Source: Nitrososphaerota archaeon
GTDB taxonomy: Archaea > Thermoproteota > Nitrososphaeria_A > Caldarchaeales > Wolframiiraptoraceae
Assembly (NCBI GenBank): GCA_021159365.1
Contig: JAGGRY010000043.1
Span: forward strand, 6,418-70,417
Direction of reading: 5' to 3'
Length of the DNA: 64,000 nt
The stretch's first letter is position 1; each line of letters opens with the position of its first letter. The notes beneath the pieces are model-generated. The model searched no databases. It saw nothing but the letters and a program-made list of their open reading frames with translations, and was not told the origin of the DNA. The position numbers and the translations under genes were made by a program. Positions 21,239 to 38,241 of the stretch are shown here, piece after piece.

Positions 21239-21673
21239 TTGAAGTCCATGGAACGTGTAATGAAGATCCTCCGCTGGATCAAGGGAAAATTTCTCACAAA
21301 GACGTTCTTGAAGTTCGCGGTAGTAGGTGGAAGCGGGATAATCGTGAATATGCTCGTCTTCCTCATCTTAACAAACTATACATCTATCCATCATCTAGTG
21401 GCGAGCGCCATCGCGACGGAGATAGCTATTTTGAATAATTTCACGTGGAATCATATCTGGACTTTTAGGAAGAGGGGTGAGATGAACATACTCATCAGGA
21501 TAGCAGCCTTTCACGGATCTAGGATCTTGGGATTGATCGTAACGGTCGCGGGACTCTACGTGTTATCAGATCTCTTAGGGCTCCCTATGAATCCATCCTA
21601 TCTCGTCGCGATAGGTTTAGGAGTTATAGTGAACTTCCTCACGAGCGATCTCTTCGTCTGGCCTGGATCCTAG
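21239..21673 (+). CDS. GtrA family membrane protein
   Basis: FLKFAVVGGSGIIVNMLVF and WNHIWTFRKRG motifs, four TM helices. Confidence 0.75.
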   Translation: MKSMERVMKILRWIKGKFLTKTFLKFAVVGGSGIIVNMLVFLILTNYTSIHHLVASAIATEIAILNNFTWNHIWTFRKRGEMNILIRIAAFHGSRILGLIVTVAGLYVLSDLLGLPMNPSYLVAIGLGVIVNFLTSDLFVWPGS

Positions 21674-22283
21674 ACTTGACCATATAGACCTTAACCCTGT
21701 CTAAGACTCCGGATCTATCGAGTGCTAGGAGTATCATGTATCCTAGGATTGATCCTGGAACTGAGCTTAAAGACCATCCAAACCAGAATATTGGGAGGAA
21801 TTCAAGGGCGCCTCTCTGCTCAAGGACTCCGAGGATTCTAACATCTCCTATTGCTGGGGCGAAGATGAAGACTGAGAAGGTTCCGCCGATCAATACCGTT
21901 CCAATCGGTTCCATTAAAGCCGCTGAGTATCTGAGAAACCTGTTCCTCGACCTAGACGTTATCATGTATGCGAGGCCTACTACTAATGCTCCTGGAATTC
22001 CCCCTGGAAATGCATAGAGGGTTCCGACTCCGAGCATATTCCTTATTATTCCTATTAGGAGGGCTGTGAGCATTCCCCACCATGGTCCAAGAAGGACTCC
22101 CGTTAACGCGTTTATGAGATGCTGGGTTGGATAAGCTTTGGTTGTGAGGAACTGGAACCAGGTTATGGGCGAGAGAACTACCCCTAGAGCCGTGAAAACC
22201 GTGAGAAGTGTTATCCTCCTTATCTGAAGCCCATTCAACCCAAGCTCTATGGACGAAATCTCCTTATAACCATGCATGTTCAA
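21639..22283 (-). CDS. thiW: ThiW-like thiazole-precursor transporter (ECF S-component type)
   Basis: YPTQHLINALTGVLLGPWWGMLTALLIGIIRNMLGVGTLYAFPGGIPGALVVGL resembles the ThiW core. It sits next to thiDN. The start is uncertain (TTG 22283, ATG 22277 or TTG 22238). Confidence 0.65.
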   Translation of the reverse strand: MNMHGYKEISSIELGLNGLQIRRITLLTVFTALGVVLSPITWFQFLTTKAYPTQHLINALTGVLLGPWWGMLTALLIGIIRNMLGVGTLYAFPGGIPGALVVGLAYMITSRSRNRFLRYSAALMEPIGTVLIGGTFSVFIFAPAIGDVRILGVLEQRGALEFLPIFWFGWSLSSVPGSILGYMILLALDRSGVLDRVKVYMVKSRIQARRRDRS

Positions 22284-22294
22284 GACTTGCTGGG

Positions 22295-22846
22295 ATGAGC
22301 GGTCTATTCGAGAGATTTATTGGAAGGAAGATAATCATCGTCGGAGAGATCGGATCTGGGAAAACCCTCCTATTGAGTAGATTCCTCGACCAATTGGTGA
22401 GAAGCGGGCTTAAGGATAAGGTCACGGTCATCGAGATGGCCCCGAACATGGGAGAAGTGGGTGGAACGATCGAGAACTATACGAGGAACGTCTCAAGCGT
22501 CAGATATCTTAAGCCCTGGAAGATAATCCCGCCTAGAATGATGGGGGAGAGCCGCGAGGAAGTACTCAAGTATGCGAGGTTGAATGTGCTAGCGTTGAAG
22601 CCCTTGATAGAGGAATATCTTAGGAATCCAACTGAAATCCTCCTCATAAACGATTTAACGATCTATCTCCACGCAGGGGATGTCGAGGACATAATCCAAC
22701 TCATCAATATCTCTAAGACCTTCACTGCCACCGCCTATGAAGGCAAGAGACTCGCGGATGATAAAGGCTCCGGGATCACAGATAGGGAGAGAGAATCCTT
22801 GAATAGGTTAAAGGGGCTTGTAGACGAAGTCCTGACGCTCGGCTAG
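22295..22846 (+). CDS. small P-loop NTPase/kinase of unknown function
   Basis: Walker [13 protein letters not shown] and Walker B-like [24 protein letters not shown] recalls the Clp1/Grc3-type P-loop arrangement. I chose the ATG at 22295. Confidence 0.55.
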
Positions 22847-22872: not shown

Positions 22873-24237
22873 ATGGAGATCTTGATGAGAATACCTAGAG
22901 CGTTAACTATAGCTGGATCGGATTCGGGAGGTGGAGCTGGAATCCAAGCGGATCTGAAGACCTTCGCGGCTCTCGGAGTTCATGGAATGAGCGCATTAAC
23001 CGCGATAACCGCTCAAAACACTCGTGAGGTAACCATGGTACATGATATTCCAATCGAGATGATTAAGGAGCAGATTAGAGTCGTGGTGGAGGATATTGGA
23101 GTTGACGCGGTTAAGACTGGAATGCTTCATACGAGCGAGATCATTGAAGCCGTGGCCTCGGAGCTTAGAAAGATAGATGCTCCTCTGGTTGTCGATCCAG
23201 TGATGGTTGCGAAGAGTGGAGCAAGGCTTCTAAGAGAAGATGCCGTTAAATCTCTGATCGAGGAACTGATCCCATTAGCTACCGTCTTAACCCCGAATGC
23301 AGGTGAAGCGGAAGCCTTAACAGGATTCAAGATTAAGAATCTAGAAGATCAGAAGCGGGCTGCGGAGAAGATCTCAGAGCTTGGTGTTAAGGCGGTGGTG
23401 GTTAAGGGCGGACACATCCCTGGAGAAAAAGTCATCGACGTCCTCTACTTCGATGGAGAGTTCAAGACTTATGAGTCGAGGAGAATTAAGAGCAAGAATA
23501 CTCATGGAACTGGATGCTGCTTCGCGTCAGCGATAGCCGCCGAACTCGCGAAGAATATTCCTATACCTGAAGCCGTTGAGGTCGCTAAGAGATTTGTTGA
23601 GGACGCGATCAGATATGGTTTTCCGGTTGGGGGAGGCCATGGCCCAATAAATCCCGTTGGAAGATTGATTGAAGACGCTGATAGATTCAGGGTTTTAGAT
23701 TCTATGAGAAGGGCCGTGAAGATCCTCGAATCTATGAACCTCTCCGAATATATTCCAGAATCTCAATCGAATCTCGTCATGGCGATCGAGGGAGCGGATG
23801 ATTTATCCGATGTCGCCGCGATACCGGGAAGAATCGTGAGAATCTATGATAGGGTTAAGGCCTCGGAAGCACCTTGGTTTGGAGCGTCGAGGCATGTGGC
23901 AAACGCCGTCTTAACGGCCATGAAATTTGATCCTAGAATTAGATCGGCGATAAATCTAAGATATGATGACAGGCTGATCGAGGCCGCGAAGAATCTTGGA
24001 TGGGTCGTAAGCTTTTATGATAGGAGAGAGGAACCTGAGGAGATTAAGAAGCTTGAGGGAAGAACCGTTCCATGGGGTATAGAGACCGCTGTGAAGAGAG
24101 CCGGTGGAAGAGTTCCAGACCTAGTCTATCATCTAGGAGATTGGGGGAAGGAGCCGATGGTCCTAGTCTTCGGTAGAGATTCCATGGATGTCGTGGAGAA
24201 GATTGAGAGATTGATCGCCGAATTATCGAGATTATGA
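22873..24237 (+). CDS. thiDN: bifunctional HMP/HMP-P kinase + thiamine-phosphate synthase (ThiD-ThiN fusion)
   Basis: N-terminal ThiD: [21 protein letters not shown]..., [17 protein letters not shown]. The C-terminal ~180 aa are a ThiN-type domain, as in archaeal ThiDN. Confidence 0.85.
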
Positions 24238-29313: not shown

Positions 29314-29595
29314 CTAGTGTTCCATCTCTTCCCTCTTAATGAGCTCGACGATCTTTCGCTCAGCATCTAAGCTTAGGACTCTCACCTTATCTCTTATCTC
29401 GAGTCTCATTAACATGTGCCTAAGCTCCGGCAAGGTTAAATCTATTCCACGTTTCCTGAGCTCTTCGAGTAGATTTAACTCTAGAGATTTTCCCCCAAGC
29501 TTATCCAGAACCTCTACTATTCTTGAGTAAGCTTCGCTTCCAGGTCTCGAAATATGTTTTACAGCCTTCTTACCAGCTCTCTTCATGTTCTTCAA
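29314..29595 (-). CDS. small hypothetical protein (wHTH-like), translationally coupled to cdc48
   Basis: 93 aa. Its ATG overlaps the cdc48 stop (ATGA). [49 protein letters not shown] looks winged-helix-like. Confidence 0.45.
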
Positions 29596-31766
29596 CCTAT
29601 CATAGTCAGCTGTCTCTCATGATATCTCAATAACTCTCCAACCCTCTCATACTCCTTAACCATCTGTGGAGAGATGCTGGGCTTAACCATCTTCAACGCC
29701 TCTTCGAAGTCCATCTTTGAGACATACTCCGCATCGAGGCTTCTTCTAAGAGCGTTCATGGCCGCTTCCCTACAGAGAGCTGCTAGATCTGCTCCTGAAT
29801 ATCCCTCGGTTCTAGAGGCGAGCTCCTTTAAAGATACATTTGGCGATAGAGGCATCTTCCTCGTATAGATCTTCAGGATCTCATATCTTCCCTTCTCATC
29901 TGGAGGTGGAACATAGATTAGCCTATCAAATCTTCCAGGCCTCAAGGCGGCTGGATCCATCAAATCCGGCCTATTCGTCGCCCCAATAACTATAACATCC
30001 GAAAGCTCCTCTATTCCGTCTATCTCGGCCAAGAACTGGCTTGCAACTCTATTCGCAACTCCAGATGAGTCATCAATCATATCTTTTCTCGATATTATTG
30101 ACTCGACTTCATCGAAGAAGACTACACATGGTGAGGCTTGCCTCGCTTTTCTGAATATCTCTCTTATCGCCTTCTCAGATTCCCCAACCCACTTATTGAA
30201 TATCTCAGGTCCTTTGATGGAGATGAAGTTCGCCTCGCTTTCAGTGGCTATAGCTCTTGCGAGCAACGTCTTACCACATCCAGGAGGACCATACAGTAAT
30301 ATGCCCTTCGGAGGCTTGATTCCAAGTTTCTCGAATTTCTCTGGATACTTTAGAGGCCATTCAACGGCTTCTATTAGCCTCCGCTTAACTTGTTCAAGTC
30401 CTCCGACATCTTCCCATCTAACGTTTGGGACCTCTATCTCAACTTCTCTTAGAGCTGTCGGGGTTATCTCCTTGAACGCGTTCATGAAGTCCTTCATAGT
30501 TACAACCAGATTATCTAAGATCTCCGGTGGAATCTTCTCCTCACTGAAATCTATGTTCGGCAGAATTCTCCTAATCGCCTTCATCGCCGCCTCTCTACAT
30601 AACGCAGCTAGATCTGCTCCAGTGTATCCTCTGGTTATTTCGGCGAGTTTATCGAGGTTCACGTCCTCTGCTAAGGGCATGCCCCTGGTGTGGATTTGGA
30701 GGATCTCCTTTCTCCCATTTCTATCAGGTATACCTATCTCAATTTCTCGGTCGAATCTTCCAGGTCTTCTGAGAGCTGGGTCGAGGGCGTTAGGTCTATT
30801 CGTCGCTCCAATAACTATGACTTGACCTCTTGATTCAAGTCCATCCATCAGGGCTAATAATTGGGCTACAACTCTCTTCTCAACCTCTCCCGTGACTTCG
30901 CTTCTCTTCGGAGCGATTGCGTCGAGCTCGTCGATGAATATTATTGATGGAGCTTCTTCCTCAGCCTTCCTAAAGATCTCTCTAAGCCTCGCCTCGGTCT
31001 CGCCATAATACTTGTTCATGATCTCAGGTCCATTTATCAGGATGAAATTCGCCTCGGCCTCGGTTGCTACCGCCTTCGCCAATAACGTCTTACCGCATCC
31101 AGGAGGACCGTATAGCAAGACCCCTTTTGGAGGATCTATTCCGAGCTTCTGGAATAGTTCTGGATATCTTAATGGAAGCTCTATCATCTCCCTGATTCTC
31201 TGGATCTGTTCCTGCAGTCCTCCAATATCCTCATAGGTTACACTCGTTCTAAACGCTCTCTCTTGAACCACCTTGCTGTGAATCACGAGCTTCGTCTTCG
31301 GGGTTATCTTAACTATTCCAGATGGCCTAGTCTGAATAACTGCGAAGGTGAATAAGTTTCCGAAGAATAGGACTGGAACGATATTCTTCTGAACAAGTGG
31401 ATATTCTATCAATCTGCTCTTAACAAGCCTCGTGAAGTTTTCATCAGGTCTTATCGAAGAACTCACCGGAGCCAATACGACTAATTGGGCTTCCTTCACA
31501 TTCGCCTTCCTAACGGTCACCCAATCGTTTAGGGAGACTCCAGCATTACTTCTGATATAACCATCTATTCTAATTACATCTTTCTCATCTTCAAGGTATC
31601 CTAGCCAGAGGGTTGCGGCTGCAATTTTTCTACCCCTAATCTCAACCATATCTCCGGTCTGGAATCCAGCTGAGGCTCCGACTTCTCTATCTATTCTCGC
31701 TATACCATATCCGACGTCTCTTTGACGAGCTTCAGCGACCCTCAACCTCAGCTCCCTAACTTTCAT
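29592..31766 (-). CDS. cdc48: CDC48/VCP-like AAA+ ATPase (paralog 1)
   Basis: N-domain [19 protein letters not shown]. Two AAA modules, each with [13 protein letters not shown] / [13 protein letters not shown] Walker A, DELD/DEVE Walker B, and SRH motifs. Confidence 0.95.
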
Positions 31767-33548: not shown

Positions 33549-33827
33549 TTGAAGAAGGTTAGGGCTCATGTGATAATCTCCGGCAGAGTTCAGGGCGTAT
33601 TCTATAGGGTTAACGCGAAGCGGATGGCGGACAAGATTGGGGTTAAGGGCTGGATAAGAAATCTTCCGGATGGCAGGGTTGAGGCCGTATTTGAGGGAGA
33701 TGAGGAAGCTGTTAAGAGAATGTTATCATGGTGTTGGGTTGGACCAGCTGGAGCGAGGGTTACGAATATAGATGTTGAGTGGGAGGAATATCTCGGAGAA
33801 TATGATAACTTTAAGGTTCTCTATTAA
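33549..33827 (+). CDS. acyP: acylphosphatase
   Basis: VIISGRVQGVFYRVNAKRMADKIGVKGWIRNLPDGRVEAVFEG signature. TTG start. Confidence 0.9.
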   Translation: MKKVRAHVIISGRVQGVFYRVNAKRMADKIGVKGWIRNLPDGRVEAVFEGDEEAVKRMLSWCWVGPAGARVTNIDVEWEEYLGEYDNFKVLY

Positions 33828-35235
33828 GACTATCGGCCAAGACCTTCCTCCCACTCTCGGTCAAGTGATACTTCCTAACCATCCTTCTACCCAATCCTCT
33901 CTCGGGGGGCTTCGATACTATTAATCCCATCCGAAGGAGTTCCGAGAGATGTTGATAGATCGTCGGAAGCTTGAACTCTAATCCATAAGTGATTTTAAGG
34001 GCCTTCCACAACTCATATCCATACATGCTCCTCTCAGACAATAGCTTGAGTATCTTGAGCTTGGTTCCAGAAACCCTAACATGTTTAGGATAACTGAGCT
34101 TAAACAACTCCCTTATCGACGCCGGATCCTTAAGCCCAGAACCCGTTATCATGCAGACGACCTTCTCAGATCTATCGATTAAACCATCGTTCACGGCGAT
34201 CCTTAAGGCGGCGATCGAAGCCGCTGCAGCCGGCTCCGCCAAGATTCCTTCAGTCTTTGCTAGGAGTTTTATTGATTCTAAGATCTCATCTTCCTCTACC
34301 ATTATCGCCGAGCCGCCGGAGCTTCTGATCGCTTTCAAGACTATCGATCCTAAAATCGGGCTCGGCTCCGATATGTCTGGAAATATCATCTTACAGTCTT
34401 TCTTGGGCTCAATTTCGTCCAAACCCTTCTTAAAGGCCTCCACAATTGGAGCGCATCCAGAAGCTTGAACTCCATAAAGTCTTGGAAGATTTCCCTTGAT
34501 TAGCCCAAGTGATTCAGCTTCATTCAACGCTTTCCACGTCGCTGTTAAGTTGCTTCCAGTACCCATGGTTATGAAGATGGCGTCCGGAGGATTCCAGTCT
34601 AATTGTTCAAGGATCTCAAGGGTCGAGGTCTTAAGCCCATCTAAGAAGAATGGATTGTATGGCTCGACGAGATGCCCATCCCCAAGATGATTGAATCTTC
34701 TAGAGGAATAGATGAGTTCAGCGTCATAGGCCAAGGCTTGGAGAATCTTCGCCTGCTCAGCTCCAGGTAAGACGTAAACCCTGCATGGGATTCCGGCCTT
34801 AACAGCGTAAGCGGCGAGCGATGCAGCCAAGTTTCCTCTAGAAATGCATTCCAAACATCTTACATCGGAGTGGAGGGCCATGGTGACTTCGATCGTTGAA
34901 CCCCTATCCAAGAAGGATCCAGTCGGATTCATGGTCTCATTCTTCAGGTAAAGATTCCTCAATCCAAGTTCTCGGCCAAGCCTCTCAGCCCGTTGAAGAT
35001 ACGTTCCACCTTCTCCCAAGCTCACGGGCTCCCCAACAGCTTTAGGCAGGAGTTCGAGGTATCTCCAGACTCCAAGAGGTCTAGACTCTATAATCGTCCT
35101 GAGCTCACTTCCTCTCATTCTCAAGCCCTCAATTTGATGAGCTAAGAGTAGTGGGGAGCCGCATTCACAGAGCCTTAACCGGATGTCTGGAGGGTAAATT
35201 TTTCCGCATTGGATGCATTTTAGCTGGGAGTTCAT
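33811..35235 (-). CDS. threonine-synthase-fold protein lacking the PLP lysine, fused to a C-terminal PadR-type wHTH
   Basis: N-terminal Cys4 ribbon (CIQCG..CECG). ThrC motifs SLGEGGT, NPTGSF-L-DRG (Leu where the Schiff-base Lys belongs), SRGN, GTGSN and ITGSGLKD. C-terminus: KILKLLSERSMYGYELWKAL...TIYQHLSELLRMGLIVS...RKYHLTESGRKVL. Confidence 0.8.
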   Translation of the reverse strand: MNSQLKCIQCGKIYPPDIRLRLCECGSPLLLAHQIEGLRMRGSELRTIIESRPLGVWRYLELLPKAVGEPVSLGEGGTYLQRAERLGRELGLRNLYLKNETMNPTGSFLDRGSTIEVTMALHSDVRCLECISRGNLAASLAAYAVKAGIPCRVYVLPGAEQAKILQALAYDAELIYSSRRFNHLGDGHLVEPYNPFFLDGLKTSTLEILEQLDWNPPDAIFITMGTGSNLTATWKALNEAESLGLIKGNLPRLYGVQASGCAPIVEAFKKGLDEIEPKKDCKMIFPDISEPSPILGSIVLKAIRSSGGSAIMVEEDEILESIKLLAKTEGILAEPAAAASIAALRIAVNDGLIDRSEKVVCMITGSGLKDPASIRELFKLSYPKHVRVSGTKLKILKLLSERSMYGYELWKALKITYGLEFKLPTIYQHLSELLRMGLIVSKPPERGLGRRMVRKYHLTESGRKVLADSLNREP

Positions 35236-35238
35236 TTA

Positions 35239-35250
35239 CCTATATATAGG
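35239..35250. promoter_or_regulatory. palindromic TATA element CCTATATATAGG in a divergent promoter region
   Basis: Perfect 12-nt palindrome 4 nt from the ThrC-like gene start codon. A second TATA-like CTTATATC lies at 35257-35264, facing the + strand gene. Confidence 0.4.
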
Positions 35251-35271
35251 CAATCCCTTATATCTCCCTAT

Positions 35272-35285
35272 CGCTCAGCTGAGCG
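35272..35285. promoter_or_regulatory. perfect 14-nt palindrome CGCTCAGCTGAGCG (operator-like)
   Basis: Read directly from the sequence. It lies between the TATA-like box (35257-35264) and the ATG at 35289, which is where an archaeal repressor would block initiation. Confidence 0.4.
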
Positions 35286-35288
35286 CAG

Positions 35289-35993
35289 ATGAATAGATCT
35301 AAGTCCTTGATAGCCGCTAAGCTCGCGCTCTCAACGGCCTTAGTTATGGCCTCGACCATGGCGATAAATGTCTATGTTCCAGCGACCCGCGGATACTTCA
35401 ATTTAGGCGAATGCATGATCTATTTGGTGGCCCTTCTCTTCGACCCGGTCACCGCCGCCTTTGCAGGTGGAATTGGATCTGCATTAGCGGATATAGCTTT
35501 AGGATACTTGATCTATGCTCCAGCGACTTTAGTGATTAAGGCAGCTGAGGGTGCTGTTGCCTCGAAACTTGCAAAGAAGATTAAAGCTAGAGGTGAATCC
35601 ATCCTTCTACCGATAGCTTTCCTGGTCGTGGCAGGATACTTCACCCTCATCCTCATAATCGGATACACGATCTTCGCGGGAGAAGTTGAGTTCACCCTCG
35701 CAAACTTTTTCGTTGTTAAAGGATTTCTAAGTCCGGTGACGTGGATTCCGATAGCCTTTGCCGCAACTCTCATTCCATTCTATCTAACTCTTAGAAGAAG
35801 AGGCGAGGGACTACTCATCGCCGCTCTCCTTTTATCAGGTCTCATCATGATCTCCGGATACTTCATCTACGAACAATTGATCTTAGGCTATTATGCGTTG
35901 GCGGAAGTTCCTGTGAATTTTGGGCAGGCGGTTCTTGGAACAGCTATCGCAATCCCGCTCTATAAGGCGGTTCAGAAAATTAGGGGCGCATAA
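35289..35993 (+). CDS. ECF-transporter S-component-like membrane protein (substrate unknown)
   Basis: Six or so TM helices. [52 protein letters not shown] resembles RibU/ThiW-type S components. No ECF A/T genes are in the window. Confidence 0.5.
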
Positions 35994-36030
35994 ATGTCTG
36001 AGCTTATTTAATGTTCTCGGAAACCGTTAT

Positions 36031-38241
36031 ATGGACGGCTATCCAAGATATGTCTCGAAGTTCGAAATGGTTCGGAGAGAACGTAGGAAGGAAGTTCAGC
36101 TCAGGGTTGCCGAGGCTCGTCAAAGAGATATTGGGAGGAAGATCGCTAGACTCGACAGTAGGGCGATTAGAGAGCTTGGCCTAAGCCCAGGAGATCTAGT
36201 CGAGATAATTGGAAAGAGATCTACTCTCGCAATAGTATGGCCACCATATAAGGAAGACGACGGAATGGGGTTGATCAGGATAGATGGAGAAGTTCGGAGA
36301 AATGCGGGAGTCTCTGTGGGAGACTATGTTAGGGTTGCGAAGGCGAATGCGAAGCCCGCTACAAAGATCGTTTTAGCCCCATTCGAGTCTCTTCCATTCG
36401 TTGGAGATTTCGCGAGAATAGTTCGCAGTCAGCTCCTAAATCTCCCCGTGATGAAGGGTGACATAATAGTCATCCCAGTCTTGGGAATGGGCGTTGAGCT
36501 TAAAGTTACATCAACGAGTCCAACCAACGCCGTCATAGTCACGGAGAACACGATCGTCGAGGTAAGCACGACGCCTGTGAGAAGGGTTGAGGAAGTAGGC
36601 GGAGTAACCTATGAAGATATTGGAGGACTTCATGAAGAGCTTCAAAGGATTAGAGAGATGGTCGAACTTCCTCTAAAACATCCAGAACTCTTCAGGCATC
36701 TTGGAATAGATCCTCCGAAAGGAGTCATCCTATATGGTCCACCTGGATGCGGTAAGACCTTGATAGCTAAGGCAATAGCGAATGAGACTGGAGCCCACTT
36801 CATCTCGATAAATGGACCTGAGATAATGAGCAAGTTTTATGGTGAGAGCGAGGCAAGGCTTAGAGAGGTATTCCAAGAAGCTGAGCAAAACGCTCCAAGC
36901 ATAATATTCATCGATGAGCTTGATGCGATCGCCCCGAAGCGTGGAGAAGTTACGGGAGAAGTTGAGCGGAGAGTCGTCTCCCAGCTCCTAACCCTAATGG
37001 ATGGATTGAAGACCCGCGGCCAAGTCATAGTCATAGGTGCAACGAATAGAATTGAAGCCGTTGATCCAGCTCTCAGGAGACCTGGAAGATTCGACCGAGA
37101 GATCAGGATAGGTGTTCCTGATAGAAATGGGAGAAAGGAGATATTCCAAATACACACCAGGAGGATGCCCCTCGCGGAGGATGTCGACTTGGATGAATTG
37201 GCGGATATAACTCATGGATTCACCGGAGCCGACATAGCGGCTCTTTGTAGGGAAGCTGCGATGAGCGCGCTTAGAAGATTTTTGCCGAAGATAGATTTGG
37301 AGAGGGAGACTATTCCAGCTGAGATTCTTGAGCAGATAAAGGTTACAAGAGAAGACTTCACGAATGCGTTGAGAATAGTTCAGCCCTCAGCTCTGAGGGA
37401 AGTTATCTTGGAGATACCGAATGTTAGATGGGAAGATATAGGAGACCTTGAACAAGTTAAGCAGGAGTTGAAGGAAGCCGTTGAATGGCCTCTAAAGTAT
37501 CCGGATGTCTTTAAGAGGCTTGGAATAAGGCCTCCGCGGGGAATCCTACTCTATGGCCCACCTGGAACGGGTAAGACTCTACTTGCAAAGGCCGTTGCGA
37601 CTGAGAGCGAGGCGAACTTCATCTCCGTTAAAGGGCCAGAAGTGTTAAGCAAGTGGGTTGGGGAATCTGAGAAGGCGATAAGGGAAATATTTAGAAAAGC
37701 GAGAGAAACCGCTCCATGCATAATCTTCTTCGATGAGCTCGACGCAATCGCCCCTAGAAGAGGGATGCATACTGATGCCGGCGTAACTGATAGAATTGTT
37801 AACCAGATCTTGACGGAGATGGATGGAATTCAGATCCTTAAGGGAGTCGTCGTGATCGGGGCCACGAATAGACCTGACATCTTAGATCCAGCTCTACTTA
37901 GACCTGGAAGATTCGATAGAGTGATCTACGTCCCGCCGCCAGATGTTGAAGGAAGATATCAGATATTCCAAATACACACTAGGGAGATGCCGTTAGACGA
38001 TGATGTCGATTTGAGGAGACTTGCCGAAATGACTGAGGGATATACCGGAGCCGACATAGAGGCGGTATGTAGGGAAGCAGCGTTAACGGCTGCGAGAGAA
38101 GACTTGAATATCAAGAAAGTCTCGATGAGACACTTCGTCGCCGCCTTGGAGAAGGTGAAGCCTAGCATAACTCCTGAGCAGAGACGCGAGTATGAGAAGA
38201 TCTTGACGGACTTCAGGAGATCGATGGCCTACATATCCTAG
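36031..38241 (+). CDS. cdc48: CDC48/VCP-like AAA+ ATPase (paralog 2)
   Basis: [20 protein letters not shown]-domain. Walker [14 protein letters not shown] and [13 protein letters not shown]. The start is either ATG 36031 or ATG 36067; the ORF-track start at 35920 overlaps the upstream gene. Confidence 0.95.

Follow-up and report, generated by a model that had tools for sequence, protein, structure and literature searches.

Introduction

Regulators of the MocR/PdxR family have been reported as absent from Archaea (PMC5320631), and in reviews of pyridoxal 5'-phosphate (PLP) metabolism both regulators and transporters figure as open gaps (PMC9997740). Here we describe a gene at positions 33811-35235 (minus strand) of a 64,000-nt stretch of DNA from a Nitrososphaerota archaeon (assembly GCA_021159365.1, contig JAGGRY010000043.1, positions 6,418 to 70,417), referred to below as the window. 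Its product is a 474-residue protein in which an apparent pseudoenzyme resembling threonine synthase (ThrC) is followed by a PadR-type winged helix-turn-helix (wHTH), as judged from the open reading frame (ORF), the Pfam matches to PALP and PadR, and homologs of the same architecture. On balance we favour the reading that this is an autoregulated pseudoenzyme regulator sensing PLP or another form of vitamin B6, analogous but not homologous to PdxR, with a ligand and a sign of regulation that we infer.

The PdxR gene and pdxST point away from each other; with PLP bound, PdxR represses its own gene, and in the apo form it activates pdxST (PMC10450172). Like PdxR, the window protein combines a wHTH, a flexible linker and a sensor domain derived from a PLP enzyme (PMC5320631). 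The analogy extends to function, in that the gene is found divergent from pdxST or beside a pdxU transporter, and PdxR autoregulates and responds to PLP. However, the two proteins have no homologous domain. PdxR carries an N-terminal GntR wHTH and a fold-type I aminotransferase domain that keeps the PLP lysine, whereas the window protein has an N-terminal fold-type II ThrC domain without the lysine and a C-terminal PadR wHTH. The proposed DNA site also differs, being a single 12-bp palindrome beside an archaeal TATA element instead of the multiple direct and inverted repeats of PdxR.

Among archaeal vitamin regulators, RbkR (B2), ThiR (B1) and the predicted CblR (B12) have been mentioned (PMC10746257, PMC8305020). 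ThiR and RbkR resemble the proposed regulator as archaeal one-component proteins in which a vitamin-pathway enzyme domain, joined to a helix-turn-helix (HTH), senses the product and controls transport or biosynthesis (PMC10746257, PMC8305020). They differ in their folds (ThiN and riboflavin kinase), in the N-terminal position of the HTH and in the vitamins concerned, and RbkR is still an active enzyme. The ThiN domain of ThiR is catalytically inactive. Enzyme-derived one-component vitamin regulators are therefore already known, and what is new here is the other PLP fold, the other wHTH family and the removal of the catalytic lysine.

With the PadR family (PF03551) the window protein shares a wHTH that scores above the gathering threshold, a palindromic target (here a proposed one) and a predicted C-terminal helix after the wing. 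In classical PadR proteins, by contrast, the wHTH is N-terminal and ligands are sensed where the two subunits meet or in a small domain at the C-terminus, whereas here the wHTH follows an enzyme-derived sensor of 370 residues. With true threonine synthases (2D1F, 2ZSJ, 1V7C) it has in common the fold, about 35% identity, a PRK08197-type zinc ribbon and the motifs of the PLP site; it departs from them in the replacement of lysine by leucine, the loss of the substrate-phosphate arginine, an Asn-Ser pair and a threonine, the extra wHTH and a different gene neighbourhood. The closest relatives in architecture are the Thermococcales-type proteins of PRK05638, in which ThrC and wHTH are fused in the same way. 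That clade has arginine at the lysine position and no CCTATATATAGG operator, and the window protein reaches only 269 bits on its model against a cutoff of 421. Literature searches on ThrC with PadR, on DNA-binding proteins resembling threonine synthase and on B6 regulons in Archaea brought up no account of a fused ThrC-PadR protein or of a B6 regulator in an archaeon.

Domain architecture

An original prediction, made from the letters of the window alone, had described a 474-residue ORF with the ThrC layout and an N-terminal cysteine ribbon, and the motifs, the PALP match and the matches to ThrC structures agree with it. The motifs SLGEGGT, SRGN, GTGSN and ITGSGLKD are all present. Pfam PALP covers residues 71-365 with an E-value of 1.5e-58, delimiting a fold-type II PLP domain (34141-35025, minus strand) that motif comparison also recovers, and the closest solved relatives in a PDB sequence search are the threonine synthases 2d1f and 2zsj (E about 1e-52). 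An AlphaFold2 model built from 96 homologs has a mean pLDDT of 89.4, and its top Foldseek matches are ThrC structures.

Residues 5-29 (35149-35223, minus strand) form a Cys4 zinc ribbon recognised by its conservation: C7, C10 and C25 never vary in the homolog alignment, and the conservation of C23 is at least 90%. Canonical zinc-ribbon ThrC can be aligned from residue 3-5 of the window protein onwards, and the ribbon is an inheritance from the ThrC ancestor.

At the other end, residues 395-467 (33835-34053, minus strand) match PadR (PF03551) with an E-value of 6.5e-11 and 42.5 bits against a gathering score of 27, which bears out the earlier assignment of the last ~90 residues to a PadR wHTH. 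HTH_5 also matches this region (E 1.8e-6), sequence matches in the PDB include the PadR-like structures 3elk and 3l7w, and the recognition helix reads PTIYQHLSEL. The two domains are joined by a flexible linker (residues 370-384; 34084-34128, minus strand), which is variable in length in the alignment and is the only segment of the model with pLDDT < 50; the model also predicts a C-terminal helix after the wing. All NCBIfam threonine-synthase models score below their cutoffs, at 287.8 against 303 (PRK08197), 269 against 421 (PRK05638) and 164.7 against 167.1 (TIGR00260), with the PRK05638 alignment spanning residues 5-466.

Loss of the catalytic lysine and the substrate site

The minus strand reads GGA TCC TTC TTG GAT AGG, and the TTG codon (34911-34909) makes residue 109 a leucine. 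Leu109 aligns with the Schiff-base lysine of NPTGSFKDRG in 2d1f, 2zsj and 6cgq, so that the lysine-to-leucine change noticed in the original prediction holds both at the level of the codon and against solved ThrC. Among the best 120 homologs in a collection of 5.8 billion proteins, a strict motif reads the position in 110 (I 48, L 40, T 12, M 4, V 4, A 1, E 1) and a relaxed one reads L or V in 4 more, and lysine occurs in none of the 114 readable sequences. The other six, which are divergent and unreadable by pattern, show L in the homolog alignment. A sequencing error at this codon is excluded because every close homolog also lacks the lysine, and its loss is a family trait. Alignment with canonical ThrC, the check proposed for a shifted or compensating lysine, revealed none: the invariant K98, K163, K202 and K369 are conserved in canonical ThrC as well, and the lysine-to-leucine column stands.

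The contrast with ordinary threonine synthases was drawn on a second set, obtained by scanning one genome per GTDB species, which gave 80 loci with 48 fusion proteins and 33 plain ThrC, each viewed in about 13 kb of sequence context. The Schiff-base lysine is kept in 33/33 plain ThrC and in 8/46 fusions (p = 5e-15), as the suggested association of lysine loss with wHTH fusion would have it. The substrate-phosphate arginine is kept in 30 of the 33 plain enzymes and in none of the 48 fusions, and the STGNT loop and the Asn-Ser pair are replaced in fusions. The window protein has SRGNL and E-P..F..G-L-K-T where canonical ThrC has the S-T-G-N-T loop and N-S...R...G-Q-K-T, which, from ThrC structures, we take to be the residues that bind the phosphate and carboxylate of O-phosphohomoserine.

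The cofactor site has been kept. G225, G227, G134, T364, G367 and K369 are invariant, and N135, F108 and G365 are at least 90% conserved. These residues presumably hold PLP, through the glycine-rich phosphate loop (G225, G227), an asparagine for O3', a threonine for N1 and a stacking phenylalanine. Fold-type II chemistry needs the lysine of the internal aldimine. The window protein has the fold of ThrC and clear similarity to it; it lacks the Schiff-base lysine and the residues for the substrate phosphate and carboxylate, and falls short of the curated cutoffs. It is most likely a threonine-synthase fold without catalysis.

Distribution and evolution of the fusion

All of the best 120 homologs are archaeal, and 119 are recorded as PALP plus PadR, the exception being labelled partial. 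Those that carry a name are mostly called 'threonine synthase', and two are called 'pyridoxal-phosphate dependent enzyme'. When the wHTH alone was searched with phmmer against 1.8 billion cluster representatives, 150 matches were found, mostly proteins of 430-500 residues with the domain at the C-terminus. The ThrC-wHTH family is large, and the wHTH signature is conserved in all fusion clades. The same search returned P0121, a 2867-residue protein with 16 stretches matching the wHTH and no Pfam match, which appears to be an unusual tandem-wHTH protein.

A rough neighbour-joining tree groups all fusions in a single clade whose sister is the canonical ThrC of Archaea. Hydrophobic residues occupy the lysine position in clade A, to which the window protein belongs; clade B has either lysine (some Bathyarchaeia, Asgard) or arginine (other Bathyarchaeia, Thermococci). 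The fused relatives with lysine or arginine, taken together with the tree, therefore suggest that the wHTH was fused once, that substrate binding was lost early and that the lysine was lost later and at least twice. This refines the original prediction in two respects, as the fusion preceded the loss of the lysine and the architecture is widespread in Archaea and no one-off.

A canonical lysine-bearing ThrC and a fusion occur together in one metagenome-assembled genome (MAG; L008 and L048), and in L034 and L037 such a ThrC adjoins a clade-B fusion with arginine in place of lysine. The fusion is therefore not the threonine synthase of these cells. Two Thermococci fusions (L072:5992-7329 and L080:5992-7329) score 804 bits on PRK05638, and they too have arginine at the PLP lysine position and are missing the substrate-phosphate arginine; the 'equivalog' name of threonine synthase that PRK05638 bears is probably wrong for this clade as well.

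A conserved palindrome beside the TATA element

Only 53 bp separate the regulator gene from its divergent neighbour, which encodes a transporter S component. This interval holds the 12-bp palindrome CCTATATATAGG (35239-35250), which we propose as the operator. It occupies nucleotides 4-15 ahead of the regulator's start codon, with 7 nt between it and a shared TATA element (35258-35263; TTATAT on the plus strand, ATATAA on the minus strand). From the centre of the TATA element it is about 26 nt to the ATG of the regulator and about 28 nt to that of the S component. Short palindromes with no spacer were read by eye and by pattern search, and the unit was found by aligning the orthologs L081-L083 (88-56% protein identity) with distant clade-A loci. 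Across the aligned loci it is fixed: a TATA element, ATATA(T)AA, is followed by a 7-nt spacer, the palindrome and a start codon 3-24 nt past the palindrome. As a pattern for scanning the unit reads ATATAA-N7-CCTAYRYATAGG, and variants of the palindrome in other loci are CCTACATATAGG, CCTATATATCGG and CCTAAATATAGG.

In clade A, represented by 20 genome loci and the window, CCTATATATAGG with at most three mismatches (most have 0 or 1) stands upstream of 16 of the 21 genes. The loci that bear it come from Nitrososphaerota, Thorarchaeota, Bathyarchaeia and Thermoplasmata-like MAGs, and in both Thermoplasmata-like loci the palindrome is present twice, at a distance of 20 bp. An exact match to the 12-mer is found once in the 64-kb window and once in each of 7/83 loci, always at the same position, and the palindrome is absent from the clade-B fusion, Thermococci fusion and canonical thrC loci examined. 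Because the proteins are only about 40% identical, this non-coding conservation of TATA-N7-palindrome goes beyond what inheritance alone could leave.

As an independent test, a metagenome collection was scanned for ATATAA-N{7,8}-CCTATATATAGG, with the 8-nt spacer as a built-in control. With the 7-nt spacer a ThrC-wHTH gene is immediately downstream in 45/77 matches and a divergent S component is present in 42/77; with the 8-nt spacer a fusion gene or S component is found in 0/43 (p = 4e-12 against the 7-nt spacer). The palindrome also accompanies a wHTH that has no enzyme domain. Locus L099 encodes a stand-alone wHTH of 77 residues, 36% identical to the C-terminal domain of the window protein and carrying the signature TK-KILK...GYE...TIYQHL-EL...YHLT. 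Its gene shares an operon with a BanI-like restriction enzyme and is divergent from two DNA methylases, with the TATA-N7-CCTATATATAGG unit between them (L099:3263-6157). This protein looks to be a controller (C) protein acting through the DNA site of the fusions. In the genome loci, the metagenome scan and L099 alike, CCTATATATAGG is tightly linked to genes with a PadR-type wHTH, from which binding is predicted, and autoregulation of the window gene through this palindrome seems likely.

Start codons of S-component genes are mostly found 19-47 nt past the outer edge of the TATA element, most often at 24-26 nt. Judged by archaeal promoter geometry, this arrangement fits one bidirectional TATA element serving two leaderless or short-leader transcripts. 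A second palindrome in the interval, the perfect 14-bp CGCTCAGCTGAGCG (35272-35285), 3 nt upstream of the S-component ATG, was considered as an operator and rejected: it is not conserved in L081 and L082, which are 88% identical, near-matches to it in the window occur at chance level, and it is probably itself due to chance.

Association with vitamin B6 genes

The divergent gene (35289-35993, plus strand) encodes a 234-residue S component of the energy-coupling factor (ECF) type and the PdxU/HmpT family (PF07155, E 4.3e-28), a proposed importer of B6 vitamers. Its only significant sequence match in the PDB is 4HZU chain S (E 2.8e-7), which is HmpT/PdxU2 with pyridoxamine as the bound substrate (PMC4860826), and the known S components for B6 vitamers, PdxU and PdxU2/HmpT, belong to PF07155/COG4720 (PMC9997740). 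Across all loci, which hold 77 full-length fusion genes, a PF07155 gene lies no more than two genes from the fusion in 57/77 neighbourhoods. Its position varies by clade: in clade A it is upstream and divergent, in most Bathyarchaeia it comes directly after the fusion on the same strand, and in Asgard it is convergent.

In four loci from three lineages (L011, L012, L033 and L122) the divergent partner is instead pdxS, with the operator or operators between the two genes. There pdxT follows pdxS in L012, L033 and L122, the flank of L011 not being reliably readable, and the identity of both genes is clear from Pfam (SOR_SNZ at 1.5e-99 for PdxS of L122, SNO at 5e-48 for PdxT of L012). The TATA-operator unit also precedes S-component genes that have no fusion gene adjacent (L121, L130 and L170), which suggests that the S component is itself a target. 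From these associations it is probable that the regulator controls B6 uptake or synthesis.

Two further gene families recur at these sites. A gene related to AIR synthase (PurM/HypE/ThiL-like), below all NCBIfam cutoffs, stands beside the pair of fusion and S component in 14/77 neighbourhoods from two phyla, examples being L013:4080-5540, L027:2563-3579, L170:2599-3720, L040:8220-9230 and other Bathyarchaeia loci. Alternative B6 kinases are still to be found (PMC9997740), and this PurM/HypE/ThiL-like gene could be an unrecognised B6 salvage enzyme. A GNAT acetyltransferase gene follows pdxS-pdxT in L122 (1209-1763) and lies 50 nt from the TATA-operator unit in L152 (2851-3276), and this family may be an extra member of the regulon.

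Alternative explanations

Several observations weigh against a B6-sensing regulator acting through the palindrome. Adjacency to pdxST is confined to 4 loci. PF07155 also holds riboflavin transporters and the window S component is below every NCBIfam cutoff, so that its B6 specificity is presumptive. One operator that faces a PF07155 gene lies 168 nt from a ThiT-type (Thia_YuaJ) thiamine S component (L190:100-618); this may be a cross-link to thiamine, or coincidence. The 64-kb window shows no ABC ATPase and no EcfT; genes for an EcfA/A'/T module could lie elsewhere, or the S component may function without one. The palindrome is missing from five of the 21 clade-A loci. L010 offers only 57 nt of upstream sequence to read, L052 and L060 have an altered recognition helix (YVAL for YQHL), and L021 and L035 have no obvious explanation. 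A search upstream of fusions of the lysine or arginine type (Bathyarchaeia, Asgard, Thermococci) found neither CCTATATATAGG nor any shared palindrome, and the clade-C fusions have no CCTATATATAGG either. The AT-rich palindrome resembles a TATA box, and its conservation could partly reflect basal promoter function. Finally, PLP affinity may be low without the lysine, and the former substrate site is now hydrophobic (GNL, FF), so that the pocket may have been retuned from plain PLP to another ligand, a PLP adduct for instance.

Of the alternatives, the one that survives best, although we consider it unlikely, is a regulator of the same kind that responds to a ligand outside B6 metabolism: an amino acid or phospho-amino acid akin to the substrate of ThrC, or a precursor of thiamine, for instance hydroxymethylpyrimidine (HMP), which the S component would then import. 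O-phosphohomoserine was a ligand of the ancestor, transport of hydroxymethylpyrimidine was the first prediction made for HmpT (PMC4860826), PF07155 is functionally mixed, a ThiT gene is near one operator (L190), and a PurM/ThiL-like gene is often beside the pair. Yet it is the PLP-contact motifs that are conserved and not the residues of the substrate phosphate and carboxylate loop; in four loci of three lineages the fusion is divergent from pdxS, which functions in B6 metabolism only, and the one homolog of the S component with a solved structure has pyridoxamine as its ligand.

It is also conceivable, but improbable, that the ThrC-like domain is an effector-free dimerisation scaffold for a constitutive PadR-type repressor. 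Threonine synthases are dimers, and the loss of the lysine could mean that the cofactor has been lost altogether; however, G-x-G-G/S-H/N, GN, TG-GLKD and NPTGSF-DRG are invariant or close to it across sequences about 40% identical from several phyla, which would be unexpected for a mere scaffold. Still less likely is a bifunctional 'trigger enzyme' that combines transcription regulation with a new, lysine-independent activity on a B6-related substrate. A precedent for such a protein in Archaea is RbkR, which is both enzyme and regulator (PMC8305020), and some fused relatives keep the lysine. Against this, the hydrophobic replacement is conserved across the clade, and fold-type II chemistry depends on the lysine of the internal aldimine.

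That the protein is a genuine threonine synthase with an extra C-terminal domain, as its homologs are named in their sources and as the similarity to solved ThrC (E about 1e-52) and the PRK05638 equivalog spanning the whole fused architecture might suggest, is very unlikely, since the Schiff-base lysine is missing clade-wide, the substrate-phosphate arginine is missing in 48/48 fusions, the STGNT and N-S motifs are lost, every ThrC cutoff is undershot, canonical ThrC is present in the same genomes, and the operator is conserved beside neighbour genes unrelated to threonine.

Proposed mechanism

The analysis establishes the domain architecture, the loss of catalytic and substrate residues, the retention of the cofactor-site motifs, the conservation of the operator and the gene associations. 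A non-enzymatic, DNA-binding regulator is very probably what these features describe. The original prediction of a dead ThrC derivative that serves as a sensor and drives a PadR domain, with PLP or B6 vitamers among the ligands suggested, gains support from the residue losses, the conserved palindrome and the B6-linked neighbours; the identity of the ligand and the binding to DNA are the parts that we infer.

Under the preferred reading of a B6-sensing regulator, the ThrC-derived pocket would bind PLP or a close B6 vitamer non-covalently and reversibly. The hydrophobic residue in place of the lysine would make this binding reversible and let the protein report the free PLP pool. That PLP itself is the ligand we rate at slightly better than even. 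ThrC and PadR proteins are normally dimers, and a dimer would place its two C-terminal wHTH domains on the palindrome CCTATATATAGG. Ligand occupancy would alter DNA binding by way of the flexible linker and so match B6 supply to the PLP pool.

The two promoters would be affected differently. For the regulator's own gene autorepression is predicted, because the operator follows the TATA box and precedes the transcription start, which is the classical position of an archaeal repressor. On the side of the divergent S component or pdxST, the operator abuts the B recognition element (BRE) side of the shared TATA element, and would allow control of B6 uptake or synthesis with either sign. BRE-side sites are used by activators and repressors alike in Archaea. 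Extended to the whole family, the proposal is that the fusion is an archaea-wide B6 regulator which senses free PLP non-covalently, represses its own gene at CCTATATATAGG and controls genes for a B6 importer and PLP synthase, convergent with PdxR, and to this wider claim we give an even chance.

Neighbouring genes in the window

The regulator gene and a convergent acylphosphatase gene (33549-33827) share 17 nt at their 3' ends (33811-33827), an arrangement kept in L081-L083. The locus is flanked by two paralogous CDC48/VCP-type double-AAA ATPases, at 29592-31766 (minus strand) and about 36000-38241 (plus strand). As listed, the ORF of the second (35920-38241) begins at a TTG and overlaps the S-component gene; orthologs suggest that it starts later.

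Elsewhere in the window, a ThiW-type S component (21639-22283, minus strand), a transporter of thiazole or a thiamine precursor, lies near a ThiD-ThiN fusion, ThiDN (22873-24237, plus strand), with one Walker-motif ORF (22208-22846) between them. It is the second solitary ECF-type S component in the window without EcfA/EcfT.

Implications for archaeal B6 metabolism

The locus offers a candidate archaeal B6 regulator with a defined operator, a regulon core consisting of the S component, pdxST and the regulator's own gene, and a testable ligand. The linked PF07155 S component and the PurM-like gene are candidates for a poorly known archaeal B6 salvage route. If the reading is true, hundreds of archaeal 'threonine synthase' annotations are wrong, PRK05638 included; such mislabelling inflates the threonine-pathway calls in reconstructions from MAGs of Thaumarchaeota, Asgard, Bathyarchaeia and Thermococci. 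The family also illustrates a route from enzyme to sensor, by fusion, then loss of the substrate site, then loss of the lysine. If the reading holds, the regulatory logic of PdxR would have been built convergently from two PLP folds.

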